Below are positions 6,783 to 29,996 of a stretch of 32,000 nt of DNA, in pieces. Location of the stretch: contig NZ_FUWK01000025.1 of the NCBI RefSeq assembly GCF_900167395.1, positions 11,882 to 43,881 on the forward strand, read 5' to 3'. The notes under the pieces are model-generated. The model was not told where the DNA came from. It saw only the letters and a program-made list of their open reading frames with translations, and did not search any database. How positions within the stretch are numbered: position 1 is the stretch's first letter; every line of letters begins with the position of its first letter. A program made the position numbers and the translations under genes. The DNA comes from Nitrosomonas europaea (lineage in GTDB: Bacteria; Pseudomonadota; Gammaproteobacteria; Burkholderiales; Nitrosomonadaceae).

Positions 6783-6859
6783 AGGCGCGTAGCTCAGCTG
6801 GTTAGAGCACCACCTTGACATGGTGGGGGTCGTTGGTTCGAGTCCAATCGCGCCTACCA
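6783..6859 (+). tRNA. tRNA-Val (anticodon GAC)
   Basis: Hand-folded cloverleaf: acceptor AGGCGCG/CGCGCCT, D arm GCTC-AGCTGGTTA-GAGC, anticodon arm CCACC-TTGACAT-GGTGG, T arm GTTGG-TTCGAGT-CCAAT, discriminator A, encoded CCA. 77 nt. Confidence 0.93.
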
Positions 6860-14916: not shown

Positions 14917-15666
14917 CTAGTGATTTTTCTTTTCTAACTCCGCTTTGATATCTTCTGCGATAGCTTGGTAAAGCGGGCGAAAAATCGGGCGCATATTGCT
15001 GATAATACTGTTGATTTCTACCATGGATGGGAAACGCAGACCACGATGCTCGACGGGTGCGCCGATGGGTTCCAGTTGCGCACCTAGTCTGCTGAAGTGA
15101 CTGGCCAGCCGTTCTTCGGTTAGCATGAAAAGTACTCTGATATCGTGTATGCGTGCCAGTTCGATTGTGCCGATATAAAGACTCAGCGGAATGTAGGGAA
15201 AGCGCATCATTGGGCCTGTACTAAAATCTTCTTCAGAAATATTGATAGGATGATTCTTTTCACCTTTTCGCCGGCGAAAGGCGGCGATAACAGCAAGACG
15301 GGAAACTTCACCAATTTTATCTGCCGGTAGTCTGGACGGATCTATGATGGAGCGGTCGAGCGTCTGAGCACAGGTTTTCTCAAAGGGCAAGCGCCTGTCG
15401 TTACTGTTTGATGACGGACGGATGATACGGGTACAGCCGATGAATGTATCGTTATTGATACTGCGAATTAGAAGATGTAGTGAGTGGGCATCATATTCAT
15501 CTATCTCAAATCCGTCAGATCGTGAAGATTCAAACTGCAAATCTTCGCAATAAACGGAGTGACGGACGCGATAAGCCTCACGCTTCAACTCTTCGGTCAA
15601 TGCTGGCACGATTTTGAAGTACTGCCTGAAAGAAGTGCCCAAATGGCTATTTTCCTGGGTAAACAC
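14917..15666 (-). CDS. PEP-CTERM/exosortase system-associated acyltransferase (N-acyl amino acid synthase-like, GNAT/LuxI-related)
   Basis: FRQYFKIVPALTEELKREAYRVRHSVYCEDLQFE, EIDEYDAHSLHLLIR and IGEVSRLAVIAAFRRRKGE match my recollection of the TIGR03694-type family. The start is non-ATG: GTG 15666, or TTG 15642 with AGGAAA 8 nt upstream. Confidence 0.75.
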   Translation of the reverse strand: MFTQENSHLGTSFRQYFKIVPALTEELKREAYRVRHSVYCEDLQFESSRSDGFEIDEYDAHSLHLLIRSINNDTFIGCTRIIRPSSNSNDRRLPFEKTCAQTLDRSIIDPSRLPADKIGEVSRLAVIAAFRRRKGEKNHPINISEEDFSTGPMMRFPYIPLSLYIGTIELARIHDIRVLFMLTEERLASHFSRLGAQLEPIGAPVEHRGLRFPSMVEINSIISNMRPIFRPLYQAIAEDIKAELEKKNH

Positions 15667-15790
15667 GATCGCGTTCGTCTAATGATTAAAGAATTTTTAG
15701 AAATTTAACAGTTAAGACAGTCAAGTAGAGGAAGCACCTCCTGTTTAAGCTGCCCATGGCTTGATGCTTTGGCTCGATCAGTCTGCCGGT

Positions 15791-16564
15791 TCATTCAAGT
15801 CTCTTCAGATAATCCTTGGTGAATATTTTGTCCGGCAGATCACGCAGTTTCATATCCGAGTAATCAAGTACTGAAACTTCACCTGACTTCAGCGCATCTT
15901 CCATGATGATGCGGGTTGGGCGCATCTCGCCGAGAATGTTGTCAAAATTCTCGTAACGGCTGGTCTTTAGCAATCGACCCGAAACAGAGTAGAACTCTGC
16001 TTTATACGGCCTGAAATTGGATTGATTTACCCATAACAACACTTTCTGGTAAGTGACTGAGCGATCTATACCAGTAAGTTCAAGGACATAGTAGTCTTCA
16101 TCATCGATTGATTCATTACGCAGCAGTTGCGGATGATAGTCACCAGTAAAGTTGGCGCGAGCAATATCACCGTTGGCAACCTGGCCGGTCAGCCGCTGGG
16201 AAAGTGATAGCCGTATCGGCTGCGAAACACTGGGCATGAAAACCCATAAATCACGCCCTTTCATGAGAATTGCCTGACCACGCTCGGATGCAGGCTCGGT
16301 AATCATGACGATGCTGTTTTCGTTACCCTTGGAAAGTACTTGGTAACGATACAGATCTTCTGCGTGATCAGGAGCAGCTGTGCGAATAGCGACATTGACC
16401 TGAAAGCTGTCCTGCGGGAAGCGAATTTCATCCGCTTTTTCCAGTATACTTTGGGCGGTTACGGCAGATTTTTCAGTTTCCACCGGGGATGAAAACGATG
16501 TGCCTCCCTGAGCCAGTAGAAAACAACCTGTTATCAATGAAAGTAATAAGGAATATAAGTTCAT
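15791..16564 (-). CDS. LolA-like periplasmic carrier (outer membrane lipoprotein-sorting protein family)
   Basis: ATG at 16564 (GGAG RBS) gives a signal peptide MNLYSLLLSLITGCFLLAQGG. Family-like stretches are GRDLWVFMPSVSQPIRLS, ANGDIARANFTGDY and YYVLELTG. The 40-aa extension in the ORF track overlaps the divergent ATPase gene. Confidence 0.75.
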   Translation of the reverse strand: MNLYSLLLSLITGCFLLAQGGTSFSSPVETEKSAVTAQSILEKADEIRFPQDSFQVNVAIRTAAPDHAEDLYRYQVLSKGNENSIVMITEPASERGQAILMKGRDLWVFMPSVSQPIRLSLSQRLTGQVANGDIARANFTGDYHPQLLRNESIDDEDYYVLELTGIDRSVTYQKVLLWVNQSNFRPYKAEFYSVSGRLLKTSRYENFDNILGEMRPTRIIMEDALKSGEVSVLDYSDMKLRDLPDKIFTKDYLKRLE

Positions 16565-16631
16565 ATTCAATCTCCATGAGTAAACTGTCCGGGTTAGACT
16601 ACCCTGAAATCGTTCGTTCGGGGCCAGACAA

Positions 16632-17327
16632 GTGAGCAGCATCGTCCGCATTGAAAATGTATTCAAGGAATATACGCTCGGCACAAGCCGGGTTCATGCA
16701 CTCAAGGATATCAATCTGCAAATCGGAAATGGGGAGTTTCTAGCCATTGCCGGTCCTTCAGGTAGTGGAAAATCAACATTGCTTAATCTAATCGGTTGTA
16801 TCGATATTCCGTCTTCCGGAAAGATTTATATCGATGACCGGGATACTAGCGGGCAAACGCCAGATCAGCTATCAGAACTCAGAGCTAGAACTATCGGCTT
16901 TATTTTTCAGACATTTAATCTTTTTTCAGTCTTGTCAGCAGAGGAGAATATTGAATACCCTTTGCTGCAATTCAAGGAATTGCGTGCTGCTGAACGCCGT
17001 GAGCGGATTGTAAAATTTCTCGACATTGTCGGGCTGGCCGAGTTTGCCGATCATCGACCTAATCAGTTAAGTGGTGGCCAGCGCCAGCGTGTCGCAATCG
17101 CCCGCGCTCTCGCCACCCATCCCAAAATCATCCTGGCGGATGAACCAACCGCCAATCTCGATCACAAGACAGGCGAAGGTATTCTGCAATTGATGAAGGA
17201 CATCAATCGCAACAGTGGTACGACTTTCATTTTTTCAACGCATGATGCCAAAGTAATGGCCATGGCGGAGCGTTTGATACGCATCGAAGACGGACAGCTT
17301 GTCGGGGAAGATGCCGTTCATACCTGA
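16632..17327 (+). CDS. ABC transporter ATP-binding protein, LolD/MacB type
   Basis: GTG start. Walker A GPSGSGKST, signature LSGGQRQRVAIARAL, Walker B ILADEPT. Confidence 0.9.
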   Translation: MSSIVRIENVFKEYTLGTSRVHALKDINLQIGNGEFLAIAGPSGSGKSTLLNLIGCIDIPSSGKIYIDDRDTSGQTPDQLSELRARTIGFIFQTFNLFSVLSAEENIEYPLLQFKELRAAERRERIVKFLDIVGLAEFADHRPNQLSGGQRQRVAIARALATHPKIILADEPTANLDHKTGEGILQLMKDINRNSGTTFIFSTHDAKVMAMAERLIRIEDGQLVGEDAVHT

Positions 17328-17338
17328 CCGATGCGACG

Positions 17339-18838
17339 ATGATTCTATACCCCCGTAGCGCTGTACTGGATTGCTTCGGCACGGCGTCTTCGCAAAGACG
17401 GGGTGTGGTGGCGCCAGCCAGTTTTTCACAGATCACAGGGCAGTCAGTCGGAAAAATCGGGGTTCTGTTCCTGTTGCTGATGGTGTTGTGGAGCGCGAAT
17501 CTCTGCAATTCCTCAGACATTACACCACTTTCTGCAAACAGAGCGAACGTCGGGCAGATGGTGCAAGCGTTTACCTTCGATGATTTATTCAAAGAGGATG
17601 GCCCCAGTTCCGATCTACCACAACGTGTATTCCGGCAAACTTCTTCCTGGCGCGGATTTTCGCAACTGGAATTTGCTGAAACGATTGCCAGCCCCAAACA
17701 TGCATCAAAACTGCGTTTGCGTTCTGAACTATCGAATCTTGGCCAGTTGAGCCCAAACGTAAAATGGAAGCTGAGTGCCCGCATCGATTACGATGCAATC
17801 TACGATCTGTCTGATTTTTATTCGCGTCAGGTACGCCGGGATCAGCGGTTTGAGCTATTTCTGCGGGAAAATTATCTGGATTTTTCGATTGCTGATTTCG
17901 ATGTCCGTGTAGGTCGCCAGCATATCGTCTGGGGAGAAATGGTTGGGCTGTTCTTCGCAGATGTCGTTTCCGCCAAGGACATGCGTGAGTTTGTGCTGCC
18001 TGATTTCGATATTCTGCGTATTCCGCAATGGGCTGTCCGTACTGAGTATTCCAAAAATGACTTTCATGCTGATCTGATCTGGATTCCATTTGCCAGTCTG
18101 GATGAGATTGGTCGGCCAGGGGCTGATTTTTACCCATTCAAGCTCCCCGTTGCTGCACCAGTCAGTTTTTTGAAAGAAGATCGCTCCGGGCGCAACGTCG
18201 CTCACTCGAATTATGGAATCCGGCTATCCCAGCTGACGAATGGCTGGGATGTCTCTGCATTTTATTATCACAGTCTCGATGCCACCCCTACTTTCCACCG
18301 GATCAGCCAGCCCTGGGAACCGCTGCTGTTTCAGGCACGCCATGGAGAAATCGACCAGGCGGGCGGGACAGTGACTAAAGACTTGGGATCGGCGGTACTC
18401 AAGGGAGAATTCGTTTACACGCATGGACGTCGCTTCAACGTGACCCGCCCGACTGCAGCGGATGGTCTGGTACGGCAGGATACTATTGATTATGCACTGG
18501 GGCTGGATTTCACACTACCATCGGATATCCGGCTGAATTTGCAGTTCTTTCAGCGCGCGTATCTGAATTATGATCGGGATATTTTTCAGGATCGGCTGGA
18601 AAACGGGGGCAGCATTTTTCTGCAGGGAGACTTATGGCGCGATTTTCAGGGGCAGATATTGTTGATCCACAGTTTCAATCGTAATGAATGGATGCTGCGT
18701 CCGCGCCTTACCTGGAACTTCGCCAGAAACTGGAAACTGGCGGCAGGTGCAGATATTTTCAATGGCCCTCCCACTGGACTGTTCGGCCGGTTTGACAGCA
18801 GCGATAGAGTATATACCGAGCTGCGTTTTTCTTTTTAG
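17339..18838 (+). CDS. secreted outer-membrane beta-barrel protein (DUF1302-like impression)
   Basis: Hydrophobic signal segment GKIGVLFLLLMVLWSA. VRVGRQHIVWGE motif. C-terminal beta-signal VYTELRFSF. The start is uncertain (ATG 17339, or GTG 17405/17408 after a CGTCTT-CGCA-AAGACG hairpin at 17386-17401). Confidence 0.55.
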   Translation: MILYPRSAVLDCFGTASSQRRGVVAPASFSQITGQSVGKIGVLFLLLMVLWSANLCNSSDITPLSANRANVGQMVQAFTFDDLFKEDGPSSDLPQRVFRQTSSWRGFSQLEFAETIASPKHASKLRLRSELSNLGQLSPNVKWKLSARIDYDAIYDLSDFYSRQVRRDQRFELFLRENYLDFSIADFDVRVGRQHIVWGEMVGLFFADVVSAKDMREFVLPDFDILRIPQWAVRTEYSKNDFHADLIWIPFASLDEIGRPGADFYPFKLPVAAPVSFLKEDRSGRNVAHSNYGIRLSQLTNGWDVSAFYYHSLDATPTFHRISQPWEPLLFQARHGEIDQAGGTVTKDLGSAVLKGEFVYTHGRRFNVTRPTAADGLVRQDTIDYALGLDFTLPSDIRLNLQFFQRAYLNYDRDIFQDRLENGGSIFLQGDLWRDFQGQILLIHSFNRNEWMLRPRLTWNFARNWKLAAGADIFNGPPTGLFGRFDSSDRVYTELRFSF

Positions 18839-18874
18839 TTGGTCGTTCTCAAAAAATGTCGGAAAATTTTACAT

Positions 18875-20086
18875 TTATATATTTTGTCGTAAGGCATCAA
18901 CAACTGGTATACGTGAAACATGCCTGGCCGGCAGTATTGCCGCTAGTACAGTAGCAGTAAAGCCGATGCCTAATGCGAGTAGTAAAACAGACGGTGCGAT
19001 CTGGATTCGGGCGATATAGCCAAGATCAGCATTGGGAGGGGGGGGCATGGGGATACCTATGGCGGAAATGGCCGTGGCCAGCAGTACCCCTATCCCGATT
19101 CCTAATCCTCCCCCAATCAATCCCAGTAAAAGGTTTTCACTGATAATCAGCCGGAATACCTGATGGCTGTCATTACCCAGGGCCATCATCGTGCCGAATT
19201 CACCCACGCGCTCGAAAATACTCATATTGACGCTGTTGGCAACGCTGAGCAGTACCATGATCAGGATAATGATCTGCAGCACACCAAATTGCCCTTTATA
19301 CATTTCCACCGTTTTTTCGTAAAAATCATTCAGTTCCACCCAGGTTTTGACTTCCAGGTCTGATGGTCCTAATGATTGCTTTAACTGTGCTGCAATCTGA
19401 TCGGTTTCTTCTGTATGTTTCAGTGAAATGACGAGTGCGTTGACTCCTTGAGTGCCGAGCAGCTCCTGTGCGGCAGCTAACGGGATTCTGACAGCGCGTG
19501 CATCAAAATCGTTGGAAAAACTCTGGAAAATACCCGTTACTTGAAAATCCAGACTATTGAGCGCACCATCAAGCGTGTTGACCAGTAATGTCACCGGGTC
19601 ACCCGGTTTTAATTGCAGTGCCTGAGCGACACCTTTACCCAGCAAAATGCCGAATGTATCTTCGTCACTTAGCTGTCGTCCTGCGGTAATCTGTACAGAG
19701 CTACCCAGTTTCACTTCGTGTGACGGTTCCACACCCTCACCAATGATCGGCAGATCACTTTTACCATTGTTGAGCAATCCGGAGAAATTGAGCCGTGCCA
19801 TGACCTGCGCAACTTCAGTTTCACCAGCAATTTGTTGCCTGATAGTATCGGGCGTATCTATCAGATATTTTTCCGGAGAACGTGAGCCGGCTTCATAGTA
19901 CCCTTGGCGATAGATTTGCAGATGTCCACTTTGCGAGTGGATGAGCGCTTCACCCAGTTGAACATAGATATCCTGTACCCATCCACCCGCCAGAATGATA
20001 CCGGTTACTCCGGCGATAACTGCTGCCAGCGTCATCAGCGTATGGGTTTTTTGACGGAGGATATTGCGTAACGCGAGTTTGAACAT
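18875..20086 (-). CDS. ABC transporter permease, FtsX/MacB/LolC-E type (paralogue 2)
   Basis: 403 aa. N-terminus MFKLALRNILRQKTHTLMTLAAV. One TM, a roughly 230-aa periplasmic domain, then three C-terminal TMs. GGAGA RBS. Confidence 0.85.
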   Translation of the reverse strand: MFKLALRNILRQKTHTLMTLAAVIAGVTGIILAGGWVQDIYVQLGEALIHSQSGHLQIYRQGYYEAGSRSPEKYLIDTPDTIRQQIAGETEVAQVMARLNFSGLLNNGKSDLPIIGEGVEPSHEVKLGSSVQITAGRQLSDEDTFGILLGKGVAQALQLKPGDPVTLLVNTLDGALNSLDFQVTGIFQSFSNDFDARAVRIPLAAAQELLGTQGVNALVISLKHTEETDQIAAQLKQSLGPSDLEVKTWVELNDFYEKTVEMYKGQFGVLQIIILIMVLLSVANSVNMSIFERVGEFGTMMALGNDSHQVFRLIISENLLLGLIGGGLGIGIGVLLATAISAIGIPMPPPPNADLGYIARIQIAPSVLLLALGIGFTATVLAAILPARHVSRIPVVDALRQNI

Positions 20087-20154
20087 GATTCTCCGGGGGA
20101 TATGGGCAAGCAGTTATGTTCTATACCCGATGAAGAATGAAACGATAAACCTGT

Positions 20155-20772
20155 TTACAATAACGAGAAACTGCGCAGAATGGCTTCGACTTTCTTATCC
20201 TCCTTGGCAAGTTCACGCAGGGCATGGATCAATCGCGTAAGCTTCGATCCTTCAGGTGACTGAAGCTCCAGATCACGTTCGAGATCTTCCTCCAACCGCT
20301 GTAATCGCATATCCATGGGCCGGAGTGTCGAATAGCGGTCCCATATGATGAAGCCGATCAAACCGAATATGCCAGCGATCGTTACCAGCATCAGCTGTTG
20401 TATAAAATCCAACCGCCGGTCGATAGCTTCAAAACGTTGATCTACCGCAATAAAACGCTGATCTATCTGCTTCTGCATAGCAGTAAAATGTTGATCTACC
20501 GCCGTAAAACGTTGATCTACCGCCGTAAAACGTTGATCCATCTGCTCCTGCATAGCAGTAAAACGCTGATCTATCGCCGTAAAACGCTGATCTATCTGTT
20601 CCTGCATAGCATTGAAACGCAGATCCATCTTTTCTTCCAAAGCTTTTTGCCCGGCTTTGAGTTCTGCCAGTGACTCGATAATTTCTCGATCACTGATACG
20701 TGGTGCGACGTCTACGGCGGCAACAGGCATGGCGACCAATACGCTGGTAAGTAATAACAGGATTTTGATCAT
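20155..20772 (-). CDS. signal-peptide + tandem-repeat coiled-coil + single-TM + charged C-tail protein, unknown function
   Basis: 205 aa. MIKILLLLTSVLVAMPVAA signal, nine xDQRFxA units, TM LMLVTIAGIFGLIGFIIW and a C-tail rich in E/R/K/L. It lies between the two permease genes on the same strand. Confidence 0.6.
   Translation of the reverse strand: MIKILLLLTSVLVAMPVAAVDVAPRISDREIIESLAELKAGQKALEEKMDLRFNAMQEQIDQRFTAIDQRFTAMQEQMDQRFTAVDQRFTAVDQHFTAMQKQIDQRFIAVDQRFEAIDRRLDFIQQLMLVTIAGIFGLIGFIIWDRYSTLRPMDMRLQRLEEDLERDLELQSPEGSKLTRLIHALRELAKEDKKVEAILRSFSLL
20404..20628 (-). repeat. in-frame tandem array of 21-nt and 33-nt units (9 units)
   Basis: Unit boundaries read off the DNA: 33 nt (20596-20628), 21 (20575-20595), 33 (20542-20574), 21 (20521-20541), 21 (20500-20520), 33 (20467-20499), 21 (20446-20466), 21 (20425-20445), 21 (20404-20424). 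Units 20500-20520 and 20521-20541 match at 19 of 21 nt. Confidence 0.9.
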
Positions 20773-21021
20773 CTCGAATAAAATTCTCTGAATATATGCT
20801 TTAAACTGTTTTTAATTCGACTGGTTCAATATGTTCGTATACAGACAGATCAGGGAATGAGACAAACATCCACTAGCTTACCCGGATAGCAACCCATTCT
20901 CCCATATGTTTCCATTAAGAATCAATGCAATATTAAATAACAAGTACTCCATAAGTACCAGCACCGGACAACATGATGCAGCGATTCGGCATCCAACTGT
21001 CGTCTTTGCTCGCCTGCTACT

Positions 21022-22269
21022 TTATCGATTATGCCTTAACGCATCTACAATCTGCATGCGTGAGGCTTTCCAGGCGGGGTAAACGCTGGCGATGAGTGTG
21101 GTGAGAATAGCAAGCGCCAATGCTTCCAGCACCATGTTCGAGGTGAGTAGTATCTCCCCGGTATAACCACGGGCCATGCCGGGGGGAGGAGGCATCGGAA
21201 TGCCGATACTGGAAATAATTGCAGCGAGCAACCATCCGATTAGTATACCTAGCGCGCCGCCTATCCCGCCGATCAGAGCGCCTTCGCATAGAAACTGGCG
21301 CAGAATGTCGAATTTCTTTACACCCAATGCCATTGCTGTTCCGATTTCGCCGGTACGTTCCACCACGTTCATCGTCATGGTATTGGAGATGCCGAGCAGA
21401 ATGATGAGTGCAATGATCAGCTTGATGGCTTGCACCTGCTTTGTAAACAGAACGGTTGTTTTATTGTAGAAATCAGCCAGTTGATACCAGGGAACGATTT
21501 CAAAGCGATCTTGCGATAATGTGTTACGTAACGCCGCCAGTGCTGCATCGGTTTGGTGGGTGTCGTTCAACAGTACTACCCAACTGTGAGCTCCCTGGGT
21601 ACGCAATAACTGCTGTGCGGTGCTGATCGGCAGGCGCAATGCATTGTCATCATACGATTTGGTAACGGTAGAAAACAGGCCGTCGATAGTCATTTCAACG
21701 GCATTGATTCCACCTGTTGCCGTGTTCACCAGTAACACCACCTGGTCGCCTACCGTAACGCCCAGATTACGAGCTAACCCTTCTCCCATGATGAGATGAT
21801 CAGGGTGGTCGGCCGATAAATTGCTTCCAGTCGAGATCTTGAGCGCGTTACCGAAGTAAACTTGCTCTTGCGGATCCACTCCTTCGCCAATGAATGAAAG
21901 CGTGGCATCACCGTGACTAATCAACCCGCTGAAGCTCAAACGCGGCACAATCGTTTTGATCAGATGATTGCTGTTTTGAAGCGTAGGATTTTCCAATAAA
22001 TCCTGTTCCAGATCATCTGAGAATAGAAAACGGTAGGGATCAGCCTTGCCGGCTTCAAAATAACCCGGTTTAATGATCTGTAAATGGCCTAACTGGGAAT
22101 GGATAGTGGATTCACGCATATCCTGATAAATCCATTCGATGAAGCCGCTGGCCAGAATCAGTGCAACCATTCCCAATGTTATGGAGCCGATAGAAATGGT
22201 GCTTCGGCGTTTCTGGCGCAGCATATTGCGCCAAATTAAATAGCAATTAAAAGAAATTATTTTCCACAT
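21022..22269 (-). CDS. ABC transporter permease, FtsX/MacB/LolC-E type (paralogue 1)
   Basis: 415 aa. LIWRNMLRQKRRSTISIGSITLG N-terminus and the same 1+3 TM layout. It shares the IGIPMPPPP loop with paralogue 2. Confidence 0.85.
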   Translation of the reverse strand: MWKIISFNCYLIWRNMLRQKRRSTISIGSITLGMVALILASGFIEWIYQDMRESTIHSQLGHLQIIKPGYFEAGKADPYRFLFSDDLEQDLLENPTLQNSNHLIKTIVPRLSFSGLISHGDATLSFIGEGVDPQEQVYFGNALKISTGSNLSADHPDHLIMGEGLARNLGVTVGDQVVLLVNTATGGINAVEMTIDGLFSTVTKSYDDNALRLPISTAQQLLRTQGAHSWVVLLNDTHQTDAALAALRNTLSQDRFEIVPWYQLADFYNKTTVLFTKQVQAIKLIIALIILLGISNTMTMNVVERTGEIGTAMALGVKKFDILRQFLCEGALIGGIGGALGILIGWLLAAIISSIGIPMPPPPGMARGYTGEILLTSNMVLEALALAILTTLIASVYPAWKASRMQIVDALRHNR

Positions 22270-22438
22270 GCTGTAAGTTAGCTTTAGTTTATATCAATTG
22301 TTTTATGGCTTATTTTTGTCAGATGATGAGTTGTTAACATACCATTATTCCGTCGACTTTCTTTACACTCTTGGTGAAATATAAAAATAAAATTTAATAA
22401 AGTGTTGATTATTAAGTGATAAATATTCTGGCACATAT

Positions 22439-22454
22439 CGTGCTCGTTTATAAG
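22439..22454 (+). promoter_or_regulatory. sigma54 (-24/-12) promoter upstream of the PEP-CTERM protein gene
   Basis: TGGCAC-ATATC-GTGCT versus consensus TGGCAC-N5-TTGCW. GG and GC are separated by exactly 10 nt. It lies about 85 nt upstream of the ATG at 22540, in an AT-rich divergent intergenic region. Confidence 0.6.
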
Positions 22455-22539
22455 CAAAAGAATGTTTAGGTAATCGTAGTTTATCTAGCATAATTTTTAG
22501 CAGGAAAAAATTCTCAGGTTTATCTTTAAGGAGATCGTG

Positions 22540-23349
22540 ATGAAACAAACAAACTTGAAAAAGCAGTTAGTGGCTGTTGCTATTGGAGGTGTCTTTGCAT
22601 TAGGAGTAACAGCTCAAGCGACAGCGGCTGGAATATTTCAGTATGACTTGGATGGACAAGGAGGAAGTGGAGAAACTGTTATAGCGGACGCTATACAGGG
22701 GGTTGCCAATGAATCTCTCAGCTTGCTGGCGGACGGCAAAACTCTTGATGGACAGGGGTGGGTTAAGTTCAATACGTTTCTTCTTAGTACAGTTGATCAA
22801 GACTACAAGTATTCTGAGGTACTACTTTATGCTACTTTCAAAATAACTACAGAATTGGTGGATGGGACTATAGGTGCTAGTGGTAGTGAGTACAAGGTTA
22901 CTAGTTTTACATTTGATCTTTACAAAGATTTGGGTAACGACAATACTTTTACTGTAGCAGATGCAAGTAGTTCCACTCACGCTTCTGTCACTGCAGTAGG
23001 TGTAGATGACTATATAGCGTCTGGTGAGTTAATAGTTGGTAGTGCTAACATACAAGCTGCTAGTGGAGCAGCGATTAATGTGGAAACTACTTTTAATTTA
23101 CAGCCTGGAGGAGGAGAATATTTCTTTGACCCCGATCCTTTTTATAACATCTTGAAGGCTGGTTTTAACAGTACGGGTGGAAATTGGGCATTCACTAATA
23201 ATATGTTAGCTGTTGGGAGTGCTACTGGTGTTATCGATTTTAATAGCACGCCAACTGAAGTTCCTGAACCAGCTACGTTAGCGCTTTTGGGTATTGGGTT
23301 GCTTGGCTTTGGTGCAAGACGAGCACTTGTTGCGAGTAAAAATGCATAG
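22540..23349 (+). CDS. PEP-CTERM sorting-domain protein
   Basis: ATG 22540 lies 6 nt after AAGGAG. Signal peptide MKQTNLKKQLVAVAIGGVFALGVTAQATAAG. The C-terminus is the canonical PEP motif + TM + basic cluster: VPEPATLALLGIGLLGFGARRALVASKNA. Confidence 0.85.
   Translation: MKQTNLKKQLVAVAIGGVFALGVTAQATAAGIFQYDLDGQGGSGETVIADAIQGVANESLSLLADGKTLDGQGWVKFNTFLLSTVDQDYKYSEVLLYATFKITTELVDGTIGASGSEYKVTSFTFDLYKDLGNDNTFTVADASSSTHASVTAVGVDDYIASGELIVGSANIQAASGAAINVETTFNLQPGGGEYFFDPDPFYNILKAGFNSTGGNWAFTNNMLAVGSATGVIDFNSTPTEVPEPATLALLGIGLLGFGARRALVASKNA
23260..23346 (+). other. PEP-CTERM sorting signal (exosortase recognition region)
   Basis: VPEP, a hydrophobic helix ATLALLGIGLLGFGA, then RR. Confidence 0.85.
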
Positions 23350-23378
23350 TTTTTATTGTTTTTAGGTAGTCAGAAAAA

Positions 23379-23405
23379 AGCCCCCTGTTTCAGGGGGCTT
23401 TTTTT
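23379..23405 (+). terminator. rho-independent terminator after the PEP-CTERM gene
   Basis: AGCCCCCTG (23379-23387), loop TTT, CAGGGGGCT (23391-23399) running into a T-tract (23399-23405). An A-tract upstream makes it potentially bidirectional. Confidence 0.85.
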
Positions 23406-23564
23406 ATATATGTTTGATCCGCACCTTCTTATTTGGAGTGTTTCGTCTATTTTCTTGGCAGAAAGAACAAGGATATTCTCAGGTAATTAAACAGTATAGC
23501 TGGACTAATGGAACCGTATGCTACGGAAATAAAGTAGGGAAATTGAGTCAATCCATCGTAAACT

Positions 23565-24150
23565 TGGCTAACTCATAGAGGTAAGCTCCCGGTTTTGCCG
23601 GGGGGGCTCACCAAGGTTTGACCTTTACGACGAAAGAGTATCAGAGTCTGAGTCACACGAGATGGGACTGCAAGTATCATGTGGTGTTCATACCGAAGAG
23701 GCGCAAGAAGCGAATATTCGGTATGCTGCGTTGGCACTTGGGCGAGCTATTCCACGAACTGGCCTCCCACAAGGAATCGAAAATTGTCGAAGGTCACCTG
23801 ATGGACGATCACGTTCATATGTGCATCAGCATTCCCCCGAAGTACGCGGTGTCGAACGTGGTTGGGTACTTGAAGGGGAAGAGCGCGATCCAGATTGCGC
23901 GCAAGTTTGGCGGGCGACAGAAGAACTTTACCGGCGAGCATTTTTGGGCGAGAGGCTATTTTGTTTCGACGGTTGGATTGGACGATAACATTGTTCGAAC
24001 GTACATCCGCAACCAGGAAGATGAGGACGAGCGCTACGACCAGATGAAGCTGGAAATATAGGGTAGCCGCCAGGGGCGGCTCACGGTTTCATGGGCGCCT
24101 TTGAGGCGCTCACCACCCAAATCACCGGCTTTGCCGGTGGTATTTGACTT
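23565..24150 (+). mobile_element. IS200-group (IS200/IS605 family) insertion sequence; boundaries approximate
   Basis: Single tnpA gene flanked by similar subterminal hairpins: left CTCCCGG-TTTTG-CCGGGGG (23586-23604), right CACCGGC-TTT-GCCGGTG (24123-24139). Extra hairpins GCCGCC-AGG-GGCGGC and GCGCC-TTTGA-GGCGC follow the stop codon. The exact ends cannot be set without a second copy. Confidence 0.8.
23618..24061 (+). CDS. tnpA: IS200/IS605 family Y1 (HUH) transposase TnpA
   Basis: 147 aa. SLSHTRWDCKYHVVFIPKRRKK, HUH motif DHVHMCI, catalytic Tyr context RTYIRNQ. TTG is the only in-frame start after the upstream stop at 23582-23584. Confidence 0.9.
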   Translation: MTFTTKEYQSLSHTRWDCKYHVVFIPKRRKKRIFGMLRWHLGELFHELASHKESKIVEGHLMDDHVHMCISIPPKYAVSNVVGYLKGKSAIQIARKFGGRQKNFTGEHFWARGYFVSTVGLDDNIVRTYIRNQEDEDERYDQMKLEI

Positions 24151-24175
24151 TAGTCATATTTAATTTTTGAAGCGA

Positions 24176-25864
24176 ATGGAATATCAATCATTACCATTAC
24201 CCGCCGCGCTAATTGCAGAGCTCCAAGCTCAGCTTGGAAAAGACAAGGTCGTTCTGGAGCAGGATGCGCTGGAAGTTACCACACGAACTTGTATTCCTTA
24301 CCGGGAATTACCGGGAGCTATTGTTTATCCGGAGAGTGTAGAGGAGGTGCAGGCTATCGTTCGACTCGCAGCAAAGTTTAACGTACCGGTATGGCCGGTC
24401 AGTACTGGGAAGAACTGGGGGTACGGCGAAAAAACAGCATGTTATCCCGGTGGCATTACAGTGGTGCTGGAACGCATGAATCGGATTCATGAGGTTGATG
24501 AGGCTCTAGGCTATGCGGTAATTGAACCTGGTGTGACCTATAAGCAGCTTAACGAATTTTTAAAGGCTAATTATCCTGATCTCTGGTCAGATTCGGCGGG
24601 GACTACACAATTTGCCAGCGTTTTGGGTAATGCGCTGGATAAAGGCCGTGGGTTAACCCCTTATGCGGATCATTTTGGGAGCTTATGTGGTATGGATGTT
24701 GTTTTGCCTGATGGCAGGCTGCTTGAGACCGGTGGCGGACCGCAAGGTAATAATCATGCAAAATATGTATACAAATGGGGGGTGGGGCCTTATCTCGATG
24801 GTTTGTTTACTCAGTCCAATTTTGGCATTGTTGTCAAGGCGGGTATCTGGTTGATGCCCAAGCCTGAGTGTTTTGACTGGGCCGCTTTTGAATATACCGC
24901 TTCTGATGAAAAATTCGGTGATTTTATTGATGAGTTGAGGCAGCTTGTTTCGCAGGGCGTTTTGCGCTCACGCCCACATCTTGCCAATGATTTTGCCATG
25001 ATGTGTATCATTTCACAGTATCCGTATGAATTGCTTGATGGTAAGAAATATTTGAGTGAGGCTGCACTGGAAAGCTGGCGCCGTCAGCATGGTGTTGCAC
25101 GTTGGACATTTGGTTGTGGTTTGTATGGTAGCCAGGCGGAAGTACGGTTTCAGAAACAGGCAATTAAGCGCGTACTTGGCCGTTATGGTCGGGTCCAGTT
25201 TTTGGGTGCGGCTGTTGAAGATAATTGGTATGGGCGTTTACTGCGTCAAGTTGCGCCAGTAGTAAACCGGTTGATGGGTAAGTCCGATGCTTTTATGGAA
25301 GCATTGATTCCCGGAATTAATTTGTTCCGAGGTATTCCTACAGATTATTTTGTTCGTCAGGTTTATTTCAAATCACATCCACAGAAACCTGCAGATGATG
25401 TCGATCCGGCACGCGACCAGTGTGGCCTGTTATGGATAGGGCCAATAGTACCGTTTACTGCCAAGCATATTTTGCATGCTCTGACTCTGGTTAAGGAAGT
25501 ATATACCCGACATGAGTTTGATTTTTTTGTAGAGCTGATTATTGAAAGTCCACGGACGATTATCTTGCTGGTGGGAGTATTTTATGAACGGAATAATGCT
25601 AATGAAATAGCGCGTGCCCAAGCCTGGTATAAGGATGTACGTGAGCTATTCTTGCAAAATGGTTACCCTCCATATCGAACTACTACGATGAGTATGTCTG
25701 GATCACTGGATCAGAATCCGATAGCAAGAGATTTTCTGAAGATGATCAAAGGTGTTATTGACCCGCAAGATCTGATAGCACCAGGGCGGTATGGCGTTTC
25801 AGGATTATCTGGGGCTGATTCTTCTTTGGTTGCTCTCAAGCAGGCAGATAATGATCCGTATTAA
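24176..25864 (+). CDS. FAD-binding oxidoreductase, vanillyl-alcohol oxidase / p-cresol methylhydroxylase (VAO/PCMH) family
   Basis: PVWPVSTGKNWGYG, GPYLDGLFTQSNFGIVVKAGIWLMPKP and C-terminal IDPQDLIAPGRYGV closely resemble the VAO sequence as I remember it. Start is ATG 24176 (or TTG 24167), with no obvious RBS. It lies about 25 nt from the IS200 right end. Confidence 0.8.
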   Translation: MEYQSLPLPAALIAELQAQLGKDKVVLEQDALEVTTRTCIPYRELPGAIVYPESVEEVQAIVRLAAKFNVPVWPVSTGKNWGYGEKTACYPGGITVVLERMNRIHEVDEALGYAVIEPGVTYKQLNEFLKANYPDLWSDSAGTTQFASVLGNALDKGRGLTPYADHFGSLCGMDVVLPDGRLLETGGGPQGNNHAKYVYKWGVGPYLDGLFTQSNFGIVVKAGIWLMPKPECFDWAAFEYTASDEKFGDFIDELRQLVSQGVLRSRPHLANDFAMMCIISQYPYELLDGKKYLSEAALESWRRQHGVARWTFGCGLYGSQAEVRFQKQAIKRVLGRYGRVQFLGAAVEDNWYGRLLRQVAPVVNRLMGKSDAFMEALIPGINLFRGIPTDYFVRQVYFKSHPQKPADDVDPARDQCGLLWIGPIVPFTAKHILHALTLVKEVYTRHEFDFFVELIIESPRTIILLVGVFYERNNANEIARAQAWYKDVRELFLQNGYPPYRTTTMSMSGSLDQNPIARDFLKMIKGVIDPQDLIAPGRYGVSGLSGADSSLVALKQADNDPY

Positions 25865-25896: not shown

Positions 25897-26967
25897 ATGT
25901 CTCGTTGTAAACGTTGTCTACTTCCCCATAGTGCGCCCGGCGCTGCAGTTGATTCAAGCGGAATATGTGCCTTTTGCAGATCTTATGTACCTAATGATAA
26001 AAACTTGTCTGATCAGTTACATCAGCAGCGTCAGCTTGATCTCGAAAAAGCGCTGGCGGATTGCCGTGGCAAGGGGCCCTATGATGTTCTGGTTTGTTTG
26101 AGCGGAGGGAAAGATAGTCTTTATTTGCTTTACCGGCTAAAGGTTGAGTATAAGCTGAATGTATTGGCATTTACTACCGATGTCAATATTCCCGATATCG
26201 CTTGGAATAACATTCATCGAACCATTCAGAAACTGGATATTGATCATCTGGTATATCGGCCTTCTGCTCAGTTTTACCGCAAACTTTTTCGATATTTACT
26301 CATGAATCAGGAAGAGCGCGGTGCTGTTTATACAGTTTCCTATGTATATGCTCCGCTGTTTGAAGGGGATGCACTGCAAGTAGCGATGGAAAAAGGCATT
26401 CCTCTGGTGCTCGCGGGTTATTCACCAGGACAGCCAGAGCCGGAGCGGATGGAGTTTGAATTTTCGCGCAAGCTGATTACTGAAACAGACTGGACACCTC
26501 CCGGGTTACGTCAGTCGGGTGAATTTACTGAAGAAGAACTGGCGCGTTTCTGGAATCCGAAACGATTTCCGGCAGATACCCGTTTCCCACGTTATCTCGC
26601 TCCTTTCCATGCATGGGATTATGATCAGGAAGCGATGATCCGCAAAGTGCATGATTTGGAGCTGGTTAAACGGCGAGCACACGGAAACCCAATTTACAGC
26701 AATTATCCGATCAATTGGCTGCTGATGTATTCAGATCTGAAGCATTTTGGCTATAACCCTTATGCACCTGAGTTTTCTGCTTTGATCCGTGCGGGTAAAG
26801 CAAGTCGTGCTTATTGGTGGTTTATGACCCCGATTGTCAATTTCATCATCCGTAATAAGCTATTGATAGGCCGTAATACCGTTGACCAGTTACAGCAGCT
26901 TGGTCTTCAAGAGGATGATTTGAAAATTACTCGACCGCGTGGTGCTTACGATCCGGAAATTGATTAA
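25897..26967 (+). CDS. PP-loop ATP pyrophosphatase family protein, N-acetyl-sugar amidotransferase (WbuX/WbpG)-like
   Basis: N-terminal zinc-ribbon cysteines CKRC...CAFC, then PP-loop VLVCLSGGKDS. The 356-aa length fits that subfamily, but the subfamily call is an impression. Confidence 0.7.
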   Translation: MSRCKRCLLPHSAPGAAVDSSGICAFCRSYVPNDKNLSDQLHQQRQLDLEKALADCRGKGPYDVLVCLSGGKDSLYLLYRLKVEYKLNVLAFTTDVNIPDIAWNNIHRTIQKLDIDHLVYRPSAQFYRKLFRYLLMNQEERGAVYTVSYVYAPLFEGDALQVAMEKGIPLVLAGYSPGQPEPERMEFEFSRKLITETDWTPPGLRQSGEFTEEELARFWNPKRFPADTRFPRYLAPFHAWDYDQEAMIRKVHDLELVKRRAHGNPIYSNYPINWLLMYSDLKHFGYNPYAPEFSALIRAGKASRAYWWFMTPIVNFIIRNKLLIGRNTVDQLQQLGLQEDDLKITRPRGAYDPEID

Positions 26968-27036
26968 TTTGGCAGGGTGTGTTGAGGGGGAAGAGGGAAA
27001 TTATATTGAGTCATGAGATAGTCGCTGGGATACGAA

Positions 27037-28884
27037 ATGATAGGTAAGGCTGGAATCGGGACGATACTTGATCTGCTGAGAGTACGTAGTGCAGCTACAC
27101 CTGCTGCAACTGCATTTCAGGTTTTGGTTCAGAATAAAAGTTGGCAGCCGACCAATTGGGAGCAGTTTGTACAGGCCGCAGGGCGGGTTGGTGCAAGGTT
27201 AACAGATTTTGGGGTCAGGAAAGGTGATCATGTTGGTATCATGGCTGCAACATCACTTGACTGGGAATATGCCCAAATGGGGGCATTGTTTGCAGGAGCC
27301 GTTGTTGCTGGAATTGACCCTGAGTATCCGGCGGACCAGTTAAATCATGTGATCGAGAATCTTGGGTTGTCAGTCCTGTTTGTTCAGAATCGTTCAGTCT
27401 TCGCAAAAATTCCATTAGAACTTCGTCAGCAGATCAGTGTATTTATTTTCTTTGAGGGTGAATCTCAGCAGAAAAATGAATTCAGCATGATCAATTTACT
27501 GGTAGAGCAAGAAACTGATACTTCTATTTGTTTGCCGGATGTGTTGCCACAGGATGAGGCAGTGATCGTATTTTCTTCTGGTACAACCGGGATGCCCAAA
27601 GCAATTATCTTTACCCATGAACAGGTTATTATGGCGGTTGAGGCCATTATGCGGGTATTTAATGATTTGAGTAGCCAGACGATACTTTTGTGCTGGTTGC
27701 CGTTATCGAACCTTTTTCAGCGTATTGTCAATTTTTGTGCAATAAAAATTGGTGCATCGAGTTACATATTGAGTGATCCGCGTGATTTGATGCGGTACGT
27801 CAAACAGGTGAATCCAGATGTTCTGATCGGTGTGCCAAAGGTACTTGAGCGAGTGCATTCGGGGGTTGTCGACCATATTGAAGGTCGGGTTTGGCCATTG
27901 CGTATGCTGGCGCGATGGGCAATTAGGATAGGTTACAAGCGGGCTGCGGCAAGGAGTGATCGAGGTGATTCTTTTGGTCTGATGAATAAACTGCTATGGA
28001 AACAGGCCGAGAATATGTTTTTACGCCGCCTGCGAATGGTTTTCGGTTCGCGGGTTCGTTATCTCGTCAGTGGATCTGCTGCGATGCCGGTTTGGCTATT
28101 GAGATGGTTTGACGCAATTGGATTACCGGTATATGAAGTTTATGGTATTAGTGAGAATGTTATCCCTGTCGCGGTAAATTCATCTGGCAGCCGTAAATTG
28201 GGGGCTGTGGGTAAACCATTATTGCCAAATGAGATAAAGCTCACTATGGATGGTGAGATCCTTGTTCGAGGCCCAGGAGTGTTCAAGGGTTATCAGGATA
28301 GAAAGGAAGAGAGTAATTTGCGTTTTTCACCAGATGGTTATTGGCACACTGGTGATCTGGGAGAGCTAGATACAGCAGGATTTCTTTCTATTGTCGGGAG
28401 AAAGAGCGATGTTTTCAAAACATCTGCAGGAAAATGGATTGCTCCTGTGAGAATTGAAGAACGACTGGGACGTATTGCTTATGTTGAGCAAAGTGTCGTA
28501 TTTCAATATGAATCAGGCAAAATTGTTGCTGTCATTGTCGTTGATTTGGAGAAATGTGCACAGAAAACCAGTGCAGTGCGCTATTCTGAAGTTTCATTAC
28601 ATATGGAAAATATGGCTAAGAATAAGCTTCATCAAATTCTGGAGACAGATATCAATGCAGAATTGGAAGATCTGCCTCTTTATCAGCGACCGGTTTATGT
28701 TGCTGTGACTGATAAGTTTTTTACGGTAAGCGGAGGGGAGCTAACTGTCAATATGAAGGTGCGTCGCAGTATTGTTGCACAGCGGTTTTCAGCGTACTTC
28801 GAAAATACTGTATGTAAATCTGATCAGGGTCGGGCTGAAAACGGTCATGTAGTTATGAGTGGGCCAACCATTTTTTTTATATGA
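27037..28884 (+). CDS. AMP-dependent acyl-CoA/acyl-AMP ligase (long-chain fatty acid ligase-like)
   Basis: Adenylation motifs VFSSGTTGMPKAIIFTH, EVYGISE and WHTGDLGELDTAGFLSIVGRKSDVFKTSAGKWIAP. 615 aa. Confidence 0.85.
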   Translation: MIGKAGIGTILDLLRVRSAATPAATAFQVLVQNKSWQPTNWEQFVQAAGRVGARLTDFGVRKGDHVGIMAATSLDWEYAQMGALFAGAVVAGIDPEYPADQLNHVIENLGLSVLFVQNRSVFAKIPLELRQQISVFIFFEGESQQKNEFSMINLLVEQETDTSICLPDVLPQDEAVIVFSSGTTGMPKAIIFTHEQVIMAVEAIMRVFNDLSSQTILLCWLPLSNLFQRIVNFCAIKIGASSYILSDPRDLMRYVKQVNPDVLIGVPKVLERVHSGVVDHIEGRVWPLRMLARWAIRIGYKRAAARSDRGDSFGLMNKLLWKQAENMFLRRLRMVFGSRVRYLVSGSAAMPVWLLRWFDAIGLPVYEVYGISENVIPVAVNSSGSRKLGAVGKPLLPNEIKLTMDGEILVRGPGVFKGYQDRKEESNLRFSPDGYWHTGDLGELDTAGFLSIVGRKSDVFKTSAGKWIAPVRIEERLGRIAYVEQSVVFQYESGKIVAVIVVDLEKCAQKTSAVRYSEVSLHMENMAKNKLHQILETDINAELEDLPLYQRPVYVAVTDKFFTVSGGELTVNMKVRRSIVAQRFSAYFENTVCKSDQGRAENGHVVMSGPTIFFI

Positions 28885-29996
28885 ATACCTATTTTATTAC
28901 AGGCGCTACTGGGGTTCTTGGTAGTGCGATTGTTAAGGAACTGCTTTCGAACCCCGAGAACCGCCTGGTGCTTCTGGTGCGTGCCGAGAATGAATTGGTG
29001 CTACAAAAGCGTATTACAGAGTTGTTATCGTTTCTTGGGGTTGGTGAGAAAACTCGTGACAGAATGGATTTCATACGGGGTGATGTAGAGCTTGAGCGAT
29101 TTGGCTTGCATCCAGGTAATTTTATAAAATTGGGAGATCAGGTCACACATATCATTCATAGCGCAGCCAGTGTTCGTATGAACTACTCACTTGAGCGGGC
29201 GCGCCTTGCTGCAGTGACTGCAACTGAGCATGTATTGCAGCTGGCACGATTAAGTCGTAAAAATGGATTACTCCAGAAAATGGAGGCAGTAAGTACGGTC
29301 GGTGTAGGAGGTAGATATTATGGCGCTTTACCAGAACAATGGTTGAATACACCAAGAAATTTTCACAATACCTATGAGCAATCGAAAGCCGAAGCTGAAA
29401 TCATACTCAAAACTGAAGTTGATCAGGGAATGCCAATTACTGTTCATCGTCCCAGTATGATTGTTGGAGATAGCCAAACAGGACGCATATTAAACTTTCA
29501 GATTTTTTACTATTTGCTTGAATTTATTACGGGCCGTCGCACTTGGGGCGTAATGCCTGATATTTCTGATCGGCATGTGGACGCGATTCCTGTGGACTAT
29601 GTTGCGCGAGCAATTTCCTGGTCAAGTAAAAATCCTGAGACAATTGGCAAAATATTGCACTTGTGTGCCGGGCTGGAAAATATCACATCATTAGAAAATG
29701 CTGAAAAGCTTGCGCGCTCCAAGTTTATGAAAATGAATTTGCCCGTACCACACAAACGAGTTTTACCTGTTGCCCAGTTCAGGTTTTTGGTGAACAGCGT
29801 TACTCCATTCCTTCCCAGAAAAATCAGGCGATCAGTCAGTGCATTACCCATCTTTCTAAACTATACAAAAAACCAAATCTTTGATAATACCGAAACAAAT
29901 ATAATTCTTAGTAGTGCGGGGCTTCAAATGCCCCGCTCAGATGAATTTCTTGGGCCAGTAATTGACTACTATCTTTCACAAGCTTATTTGACGTAA
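28881..29996 (+). CDS. thioester reductase-type SDR (NAD_binding_4 / fatty acyl reductase-like)
   Basis: Rossmann motif ITGATGVLGSAIV and catalytic YEQSKAEAE. Its ATG overlaps the ligase stop (ATGA at 28881-28884), implying translational coupling. Confidence 0.8.
   Translation: MNTYFITGATGVLGSAIVKELLSNPENRLVLLVRAENELVLQKRITELLSFLGVGEKTRDRMDFIRGDVELERFGLHPGNFIKLGDQVTHIIHSAASVRMNYSLERARLAAVTATEHVLQLARLSRKNGLLQKMEAVSTVGVGGRYYGALPEQWLNTPRNFHNTYEQSKAEAEIILKTEVDQGMPITVHRPSMIVGDSQTGRILNFQIFYYLLEFITGRRTWGVMPDISDRHVDAIPVDYVARAISWSSKNPETIGKILHLCAGLENITSLENAEKLARSKFMKMNLPVPHKRVLPVAQFRFLVNSVTPFLPRKIRRSVSALPIFLNYTKNQIFDNTETNIILSSAGLQMPRSDEFLGPVIDYYLSQAYLT

Follow-up and report, generated by a model that had tools for sequence, protein, structure and literature searches.

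A 32,000-nucleotide (nt) stretch of Nitrosomonas europaea DNA (contig NZ_FUWK01000025.1; this whole stretch is the window below) carries, between two permease genes, a minus-strand gene at 20155–20772 whose 205-residue product contains an array of 7- and 11-residue tandem repeats. On balance we favour the view that this repeat protein is a self-contained type I inner-membrane protein with a parallel coiled-coil stalk of evolvable length, and that its gene is a lineage-specific insert rather than the gene of an exporter subunit. The protein is a member of a widespread and so far unnamed family of small proteins, predicted to be Sec-exported and to sit in the inner membrane with type I topology. 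Their architecture is clear and testable, with a tip and a cytoplasmic tail that are both invariant and, between them, a rod whose length can evolve. In what follows dN and dS are nonsynonymous and synonymous divergence. The gene is composed as follows.

20155–20772, minus: complete repeat-protein gene, 205 residues, from the list of open reading frames (ORFs); stop codon 20155–20157; dN far below dS against orthologues
20716–20772, minus: signal peptide, residues 1–19 (MIKILLLLTSVLVAMPVAA), with predicted cleavage between VAA and VD from family-wide site statistics
20629–20715, minus: conserved periplasmic head or tip, 29 residues, 20–48 (VDVAPRISDREIIESLAELKAGQKALEEK), from family conservation and head dN
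20404–20628, minus: repeat array, residues 49–123, in units of 11-7-11-7-7-11-7-7-7 residues (33- and 21-nt DNA units), from unit parsing, Tandem Repeats Finder and direct repeats
20341–20394, minus: transmembrane helix, residues 127–144 (LMLVTIAGIFGLIGFIIW), with the small-residue motif AGxxGxxG; nine of its residues are invariant in alignment A1, and it lies within the modelled helix 28–170
20155–20340, minus: cytoplasmic tail, residues 145–205, and stop codon, from conservation, the AlphaFold2 model and dN/dS of ~0.015–0.1

Translation and parsing of residues 49–123 gave nine units, six 7-mers and three 11-mers, 75 residues in total: MDLRFNAMQEQ/IDQRFTA/IDQRFTAMQEQ/MDQRFTA/VDQRFTA/VDQHFTAMQKQ/IDQRFIA/VDQRFEA/IDRRLDF. 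At the DNA level, where a 9 × 9 identity matrix of the units was computed, 20500–20520 and 20521–20541 are identical at 19 of 21 nt. Tandem Repeats Finder reported periods of 21, 54 and 75 nt over 20431–20625 (scores 105, 188 and 265), the 54-nt period corresponding to 7+11 residues and the 75-nt period to 7+7+11; two direct-repeat families (D1 and D2) map to the array. The arrays of this gene are by far the strongest that the program found in the window. An earlier sequence-only reading of this DNA had proposed the same nine units and the same match of 19 in 21 nt, and both were reproduced exactly. Its signal peptide and single transmembrane segment also stand, but the charged tail has 61 residues and not 65, the repeats do not follow the signal peptide directly since the conserved head lies between, and the strand, which that reading left out, is minus. 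There is no Cys in the 205 residues. A protein identical to the repeat protein (P0002) is present on 78 contigs. An opposite-strand ORF at 20398–20673 (91 residues) was dismissed as a shadow of the repeats.

A word-indexed search gave 765 homologues of the repeat protein at an expectation value (E) of 1e-3 or below, and an exhaustive search of 50%-identity representatives gave 1022 clusters at E≤1e-3 and 261 at E≤1e-10. Among the 150 cluster representatives listed, none is longer than 274 residues or has an extra domain. Scanning one genome per species revealed 78 loci carrying the family, in hosts which include Nitrosomonas, Methylococcales, Chromatiaceae, Desulfobulbaceae, Desulfobacteraceae, Desulfamplus, Magnetococcales, Nitrospinota, Brocadiaceae and Methylomirabilota, as well as others. 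Nitrosomonas, Methylococcales, Chromatiaceae, Magnetococcales and Brocadiaceae build intracellular membranes or magnetosomes, and with Desulfamplus magnetovallimortis such hosts appear enriched on inspection.

Members share a common layout of variable hydrophobic presequence, near-invariant head, variable repeats, transmembrane helix and tail. The consensus of the head is V(D/E)VAPRISDREIIE-L--L--GQK-L, the transmembrane helix ends in G(F/Y)xxWDR(R/Y)(T/S)xL(R/K)P and the tail in LRSFSLL; the repeat region differs in type and number across the family. Across 85 diverse representatives, down to 27% identity to the window protein, head residue L35 never varies and A23, I26, D28, R29, E30, I31 and E33 reach at least 90% conservation, as do W144, D145, R146, P152 and L204. 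Transmembrane residues I132, A133, F136, G137, L138, I139, G140, F141 and W144 are invariant in alignment A1. The window protein carries the head motif A-P-R-I-S/T-D-R-E-I-I/V-E right after its AxA site (VAA followed by VDVAPRISDREIIE), and W144-D-R-Y-S-T-L-R-P152 with the terminal SFSLL205.

Head and tail are under strong purifying selection. Against four orthologous loci (L005, L007, L008 and L010; locus numbers are our own) dN/dS of the head and of the transmembrane segment plus tail is ~0.015–0.1. Head dN is 0.014–0.09 with dS saturated against the orthologues, and for the transmembrane segment plus tail we obtained dS 0.34 and dN 0.005 against L007, and dS 0.14 and dN 0.010 against L005. 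Because there are 765 homologues and dN is far below dS in head and tail, this is a real gene and not a chance ORF.

The window protein matched no family above noise in Pfam, NCBIfam, PADLOC or the PDB. A Pfam scan at E≤1 returned only sub-threshold matches of coiled-coil type and no HlyD or Biotin_lipoyl model; a PDB profile search gave only insignificant matches to the heptad repeats of HA2 and spike proteins (E≥0.01), and a PHROGs scan only sub-threshold coiled-coil-type matches, over the repeats. When the 85 members were scanned singly, Apolipoprotein was matched by 18, XhlA by 9 and CCDC90-like by 6, all sub-threshold (E≤1e-3 for the latter two), with scattered matches to HSBP1 in a minority. 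Literature searches, on Nitrosomonas coiled-coil repeats and on PEP-CTERM together with DUF1302 and ABC (ATP-binding cassette) proteins, found no description of the gene or the family. The protein is best likened to bitopic coiled-coil stalk proteins with repeat-length polymorphism. This is a sizeable conserved family, of ~1000 clusters at 50% identity, for which there is no Pfam or NCBIfam model.

Signal-peptide statistics were drawn from the 219 family sequences having a presequence. The residue preceding the head is Ala in 199 of these, Ala or Val fills position -3 in 170, and uncharged runs have a median of 16 residues; the presequence varies across the family and the adjoining head is invariant. 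This pattern fits a signal peptidase I site, so that the mature protein would be expected to begin at the conserved tip. Lys and Arg average 4.6 in the 15 residues C-terminal to the transmembrane segment versus 2.3 on its N-terminal side, with net charges of +2.4 and -1.0. Since positive charge is concentrated C-terminally, the predicted topology is N-terminus out, C-terminus in.

The register of the repeats was analysed over 704 units (410 heptads and 294 hendecads) from 120 close homologues. Successive R-F anchors are always 7 or 11 residues apart (704/704), other spacings being absent. F occupies position 5 of the unit (97–99%), V, I or M position 1, D position 2 (92–93%) and R position 4 (93–99%); hendecad position 8 is M in 228 of 294 cases and otherwise I, A or V. 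In heptad register a is F, d is I, V or M, e is D and g is R, and MQEQ forms a four-residue stutter. The hydrophobic seam is narrow and flanked by opposite charges. The a/d seam, the charged e and g positions and the 3-4 spacing with 3-4-4 insertions expected of a canonical coiled coil with stutters are all present, and we read them as the textbook signature of a parallel in-register coiled coil in which each 11-mer is a stutter. Six heptads and three hendecads amount to 21 turns in 75 residues, or 3.57 residues per turn, and the bundle would therefore be expected to supercoil only weakly. For this strain, a rod of ~98 helical residues from tip to membrane would measure ~14 nm.

An AlphaFold2 monomer model built from 15 aligned sequences (predicted template-modelling score, pTM, 0.30) shows an uninterrupted helix over residues 28–170, with a predicted local distance difference test score above 90 over 30–140, then a loop at SPEGS (171–176) and a helix at 177–201. 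The predicted shape is a single straight helix with no hairpin. The tail accordingly reads, in order, juxtamembrane DRYSTLRPMD, helix, SPEGS turn, and helix ending SFSLL-COOH. Conservation of the transmembrane segment (IAGxFGLIGF), with small residues on one helix face, suggests that it may engage in specific helix packing rather than serve as a passive anchor. From the register we infer that the rod is probably homo-oligomeric.

The rod is the only part of the protein free to vary. Length was compared among 33 cluster representatives in which the head is at least 93%, and the last 80 residues at least 95%, identical to those of the window protein. These 33 proteins, all of them intact, carry 13 different unit strings, with a mature periplasmic length of 52–120 residues (~8–18 nm). 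Writing E for an 11-mer and 7 for a 7-mer, the short strings are 77, E77, EE77, E7E77 and EE777; those of middle length are E7E7E77, EE77E77, E7E77E77 (the window), EE777E77 and E77E7E77; and the long ones are EEEE7E77, EE7E77E77 and E7E7777E77. Several of the length variants bear the NCBI name N. europaea. A change of length by whole units without frameshift, which the sequence-only reading had foreseen and proposed to look for among strains, is thus borne out; the register and the modelled helix agree with its heptad/hendecad coiled coil with stutters, and the signal-peptide and charge statistics likewise predict its periplasmic rod anchored in the inner membrane.

Two or three paralogues stand in tandem at L002 (7956–9906), L024, L030, L034, L039, L040 and L050. 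Head and transmembrane segment plus tail are 93–100% identical between tandem paralogues and the rods differ: 111, 89 and 71 residues at L002, 126 and 82 at L040, 89 and 111 at L024. From Trp144 to the C-terminus (W144 plus the 61-residue tail) the length is constant at 62 residues in most paralogues. This suggests recent duplication or gene conversion plus rapid repeat change. Strain alleles and tandem paralogues that differ only in the rod provide a natural length series, usable to ask whether periplasmic distance matters.

The repeat gene lies between its neighbours as follows.

21022–22269, minus: upstream MacB/LolCE-type permease, 415 residues (Pfam MacB_PCD and FtsX; NCBIfam lolCE below cutoff)
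20773–21021, minus: 249-nt spacer from the stop codon of the upstream permease to the repeat gene; absent where the permeases abut, and part of the insert
20087–20154, minus: 68-nt spacer from the repeat gene to the downstream permease, covered by the promoter and terminator scan
18875–20086, minus: downstream MacB/LolCE-type permease, 403 residues (Pfam MacB_PCD and FtsX); orthologues used in the synteny test

Both permeases are flanking genes outside the repeat-protein family. The orthologous cluster genes comprise those for an N-acyl-transferase, a LolA-like protein, an ABC ATPase, a DUF1302 barrel, the two permeases, an FAD oxidase and a PEP-CTERM protein. A repeat gene on the same strand between the permeases is found, besides the window, at L005–L008, L010–L012, L022, L023 and L055, all from N. 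europaea- or N. halophila-type Nitrosomonas. The 249-nt spacer is kept only in the close relatives L012 and L005. From the orthologous clusters of Nitrosospira, N. nitrosa, N. cryotolerans and a JGI contig (L083–L086) the repeat gene is absent, and tblastn found no trace of it there; their permeases are 73–75% identical to those of the window, the two genes lying 5–13 nt apart. The stop codon that ends the first permease gene is followed directly by the insert of ~935 bp (249 nt, the 618-nt gene and 68 nt); the final bases of the 68-nt spacer, CGGAGAATC-ATG, resemble the inter-permease spacer of L083, CGGAATATC-ATG. The short spacer of the L083 type probably represents the ancestral state, in which the permeases would have abutted.

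Elsewhere the position has fared differently. The slot of N. eutropha C91 (L087, CP000450; 1572–4001) holds an 87-residue ORF, a PhdYeFM antitoxin gene and an rve-family insertion sequence (IS) element, and no remnant of the repeat gene was found in it. The N. eutropha Nm24 copy is frameshifted; that of N. mobilis has a damaged head and lacks most of its tail. At L006 (4720–5990) and L012 (5570–5755) the spacer between permease and repeat gene is enlarged by multiple copies of an element resembling repetitive extragenic palindromes or miniature inverted-repeat transposable elements (REP/MITE-like), which includes the motifs CTGGATTGCTTCGTCGGCC...CCTCGCAAGGAC...CACCGTCATCGCGA. The inter-permease slot appears to be a recurrent landing site tolerated by the operon, and these comparisons show a lineage-specific insertion into a permissive slot, which some lineages have kept and others have lost. 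A permease pair that is translationally coupled can thus tolerate repeated insertions, be it of the repeat gene, of a toxin-antitoxin module with an IS element, or of REP-like repeats.

On the minus strand of the 249-nt spacer no sigma-70-like or sigma-54-like site was found beyond chance, nor was any terminator-like site found in the 68-nt spacer before the downstream permease or any Rfam family near the repeat gene. Since there is no terminator-like site downstream and no recognisable promoter of its own, the gene is probably read through with the permeases.

Outside Nitrosomonas, at more than 60 loci in other phyla, the family adjoins unrelated genes, its members frequently standing there as tandem paralogues. 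Neighbours there include genes for a hybrid sensor kinase, GMP synthase, a radical-SAM protein, an invasin-like protein, a TPR-AAA protein and a Kelch protein, CheW with a methyl-accepting chemotaxis protein, EttA, MazE-PIN and ParE modules, and a Uma2 nuclease with pilus genes. All-against-all clustering of the ORFs of 82 loci revealed no conserved partner gene, recurrence being confined to lineage synteny and to paralogous sensor-kinase or ABC domains.

Putting this together, we would picture the protein as follows. Removal of the signal peptide at the AxA site would expose the invariant N-terminal tip V(D/E)VAPRISDREIIE, and the chain would form one continuous alpha-helix from residue ~28 to ~170. 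Its periplasmic part, of xDQRFxA and xDQRFxAMQEQ units, would pack as a parallel in-register homo-oligomeric coiled coil of ~14 nm, run on as a bundle through the conserved transmembrane segment and enter the cytoplasm, where the tail of fixed length may fold as a helix-turn-helix ending in SFSLL. In-frame gain and loss of whole units would come about when the 21- and 33-nt units slip or recombine unequally, so that rod length could shift quickly while head and tail stay under purifying selection. An ancestor of the N. europaea/halophila-type Nitrosomonas presumably acquired the gene together with ~320 nt of non-coding sequence, which landed directly behind the first permease's stop codon. As to function, our low-confidence reading of the architecture is a periplasmic tether, spacer or signalling stalk, anchored in the membrane, which would hold its conserved tip at a variable distance from the inner membrane and couple it to a conserved cytoplasmic module.

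Several points weigh against this picture. No insertion mechanism is visible: neither target duplication, nor mobile-element boundaries, nor flanks shared with paralogue loci were seen at the insert, and no copies turned up in the plasmid and phage collections searched. The same-strand, intact position between the permeases is kept in the diverged Nitrosomonas loci L005–L008, L010, L011, L012 and L022, and a lineage-specific functional link to the exporter is therefore possible. The length of a tether or spacer is expected to be constrained, yet it varies more than two-fold among close strains. The AlphaFold2 monomer model, with its shallow alignment and low pTM, is uninformative on oligomerisation, and literature searches yielded no experimental data on expression, topology or oligomeric state.

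A more specific function, which we consider unlikely, is that these proteins are periplasmic spacers or "dipsticks": they would set or sense how far the peptidoglycan or outer membrane lies from the inner membrane (or how wide the intracytoplasmic-membrane lumen is) and report this through the invariant tail. If so, the family would tune its periplasmic length fast by gain and loss of 7- and 11-residue units, and the tandem sets common in its genomes, with head and tail identical, would be sets of graded lengths.

There is also a slim chance that the gene belongs to a mobile or defence pool, encoding a superinfection-exclusion or abortive-infection membrane protein that hitch-hiked into the permissive slot. 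The family is patchy across phyla, with 45–65% identity between beta-, gamma- and deltaproteobacterial copies; the tandem copies of L002 adjoin MazE-PIN and ParE modules and a transposase, and those of L001 a Uma2 nuclease. The toxin-antitoxin gene and IS element in the slot of N. eutropha C91 and the REP/MITE-like repeats of L006 and L012 point the same way, as do weak matches to phrog_6701 (8.5e-11) and phrog_12015 (6e-12), two families of unknown function. Those matches, however, cover the repeats only. Moreover, tblastn found no relative in 50,697 phage records or 72,556 plasmids, a pattern scan of IMG/VR found none either, and PADLOC gave only a weak CorA-like match (6e-5) over the coiled coil and transmembrane segment. 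A conserved partner gene and element boundaries, as noted, were not seen.

The sequence-only reading had taken the repeat protein for a structural accessory of the flanking MacB/LolCE-type exporter, a periplasm-spanning spacer or adaptor. Even if limited to the Nitrosomonas lineage that carries the gene, we find this quite improbable. It would explain a same-strand gene between the permeases in at least 10 Nitrosomonas loci, the proteins of which are 63–90% identical to that of the window, the likely co-transcription and the predicted periplasmic rod. Against it stand the clusters of L083–L086, in which closely spaced permeases do without the gene, the slot of N. eutropha C91 with its antitoxin gene and IS element, and the frameshifted and the truncated, degenerate copies of N. 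eutropha Nm24 and N. mobilis. HlyD, MacA-type or other adaptor domains are lacking, and a more than two-fold variation in length among close strains is hard to square with bridging a fixed distance. The same reading had proposed to look for such repeat proteins beside MacB-like permeases in other genomes; outside Nitrosomonas there are no permease neighbours. It had held that a linkage not conserved at orthologous permeases, or invariant repeats, would speak against it: the linkage is not conserved, and the repeats are polymorphic. Because the gene is absent or decayed at orthologous clusters, its neighbours are heterogeneous and its length varies more than two-fold, the results do not fit an adaptor, and the protein is most probably not a subunit of the flanking exporter. 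This removes a tempting mis-annotation: in Nitrosomonas the gene should not be assigned to the MacB-type, PEP-CTERM-linked exporter as one of its subunits. The exporter inference is unsupported; the value of the gene lies in a large conserved unnamed family and its natural length series.

We think it very unlikely that the repeats form no coiled coil at all and lie, as an amphipathic helix of the apolipoprotein or LEA (late embryogenesis abundant) kind, on the periplasmic membrane surface to protect or shape the membrane. An 11-residue periodicity is typical of such helices, sub-threshold Apolipoprotein matches occur in the 18 of 85 representatives mentioned above, and many hosts (nitrifiers and methanotrophs, purple sulfur, magnetotactic and anammox bacteria) build intracellular membranes, as judged from general knowledge and locus titles. 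The narrow a/d seam, with D at e and R at g, points instead to packing between helices with g-e' salt bridges rather than to a broad lipid-binding face. The Apolipoprotein matches are scattered, a minority of members also match XhlA, HSBP1 or CCDC90, and many hosts are not known for internal membranes; to our knowledge these include Nitrospinota and many Desulfobacterota. Least credible is a functionless passenger in N. europaea, heading to decay with neutral repeat polymorphism: slot copies have decayed or are missing in N. eutropha and N. mobilis and repeat number appears unconstrained, but the low dN/dS of head and of transmembrane segment plus tail, the frame and 7/11 register preserved in all 704 units and the intactness of all 33 variants with near-identical flanks make it highly improbable.

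The self-contained stalk protein that we favour may be compared with several known systems. Like it, the MacA/AcrA-type adaptors of the HlyD family are alpha-helical, periplasmic and anchored in the inner membrane, and they too are encoded beside a MacB-type permease. These adaptors, however, consist of an alpha-hairpin with lipoyl, beta-barrel and membrane-proximal domains and have conserved pump partners, whereas the repeat protein is one uninterrupted predicted helix with no such Pfam domains, and orthologous pumps do without it; linkage to a transporter throughout the taxa was not found, given L083–L086, L087 and the unrelated neighbours outside Nitrosomonas. Braun's lipoprotein Lpp, the trimeric periplasmic strut, is likewise small, has no enzymatic domain and forms a parallel coiled coil of heptads in the periplasm; the length of its rod is known to matter for envelope geometry. 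Lpp, though, has an outer-membrane anchor at its lipobox Cys, a C-terminal Lys joined to peptidoglycan and a fixed length of 58 residues, while the repeat protein has no Cys, an inner-membrane transmembrane anchor, predicted cleavage between VAA and VD, a 61-residue cytoplasmic tail ending in SFSLL, and a variable length.

XhlA (PF10779), CCDC90-like/DUF1640 (PF07798) and ElaB/YqjD/YgaM (DUF883) proteins also have a coiled coil followed by a single C-proximal transmembrane segment, often with several paralogues per genome. Families of this type lack a signal peptide, so that their coiled coil is cytoplasmic, and they have neither the conserved head nor a WDR...SFSLL tail. None of them is matched by the window protein, and the 9 and 6 of 85 members that match XhlA and CCDC90-like do so through generic coiled coil plus transmembrane segment. 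Class I viral fusion proteins (influenza HA2, coronavirus and torovirus S2) resemble the repeat protein in type I topology, extracytoplasmic heptads, transmembrane segment and short tail, and gave the best, if insignificant, matches (HA2, E ~0.02; Spike_torovirin, 4.8e-4, below cutoff) through a shared xxQFxAVxxxF-type core. The repeat protein differs in having no hydrophobic fusion peptide, no second heptad repeat (HR2) and no globular head: its predicted mature N-terminus, VDVAPRISDREIIE, is charged and leads into a single helix. The likeness is compositional and not evidence of homology. Similar in evolutionary behaviour are streptococcal M and alpha-C proteins and TolA domain II, which gain and lose tandem units in frame, so that an extended rod varies between conserved terminal regions. 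Being exposed on the cell surface, M and alpha-C proteins face immune selection, whereas the rod of the repeat protein is predicted to be periplasmic and no comparable selective agent is evident. The repeats of M proteins are also far longer than 7 or 11 residues.

The repeat gene is surrounded by a cluster associated with PEP-CTERM and exosortase (14917–25864). Apart from the permeases, it and the rest of the window contain the following features.

6783–6859, plus: tRNA-Val (GAC)
14917–15666: acyltransferase TIGR03694 (E 7.5e-87)
15791–16684, minus: LolA-like protein
16632–17327, plus: ABC ATPase
17339–18838: DUF1302 barrel
22537–23349: flocculation-associated PEP-CTERM protein PepA (NF033554, E 2e-46)
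23618–24061, plus: IS200/IS605-type Y1 transposase (Pfam Y1_Tnp, E 1.3e-37)
24167–25864: FAD_binding_4 oxidase
31591–31801, minus: psRNA2 (RF02349), a proteobacterial small RNA (Rfam, 137 bits versus a gathering score of 65, full-length model)

The gene set of the cluster is syntenic in Nitrosospira, N. nitrosa and N. cryotolerans. N-acyl amino acid synthases of such clusters have been linked to PEP-CTERM/exosortase systems, a link that PMC4897644 attributes to Craig et al. 2011. A plausible guess for the substrate of the cluster is an N-acyl amino acid lipid. On the minus strand, the longest ORF for the LolA-like protein begins with GTG at 16684; that for the ABC ATPase, on the plus strand, begins with GTG at 16632. 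The two share 53 nt in a head-to-head overlap, and at least one of the two start codons probably lies further downstream. The Y1 transposase gene sits between PepA and the FAD oxidase, which are direct neighbours in L083, L084 and L002, and is a second lineage-specific insertion in the cluster.

Downstream of the cluster, at 27037–29996 on the plus strand, a gene for an AMP-binding enzyme (615 residues) adjoins one for an NAD_binding_4 "male sterility"-type reductase (371 residues); just before the former lies an ORF of 356 residues (25897–26967) with no Pfam match at E≤1e-5. The genes of 25897–29996 may be lipid-tailoring genes related to the cluster. A literature search on psRNA2 returned nothing on the repeat gene; the small RNA itself lies on the minus strand near the far end of the window.

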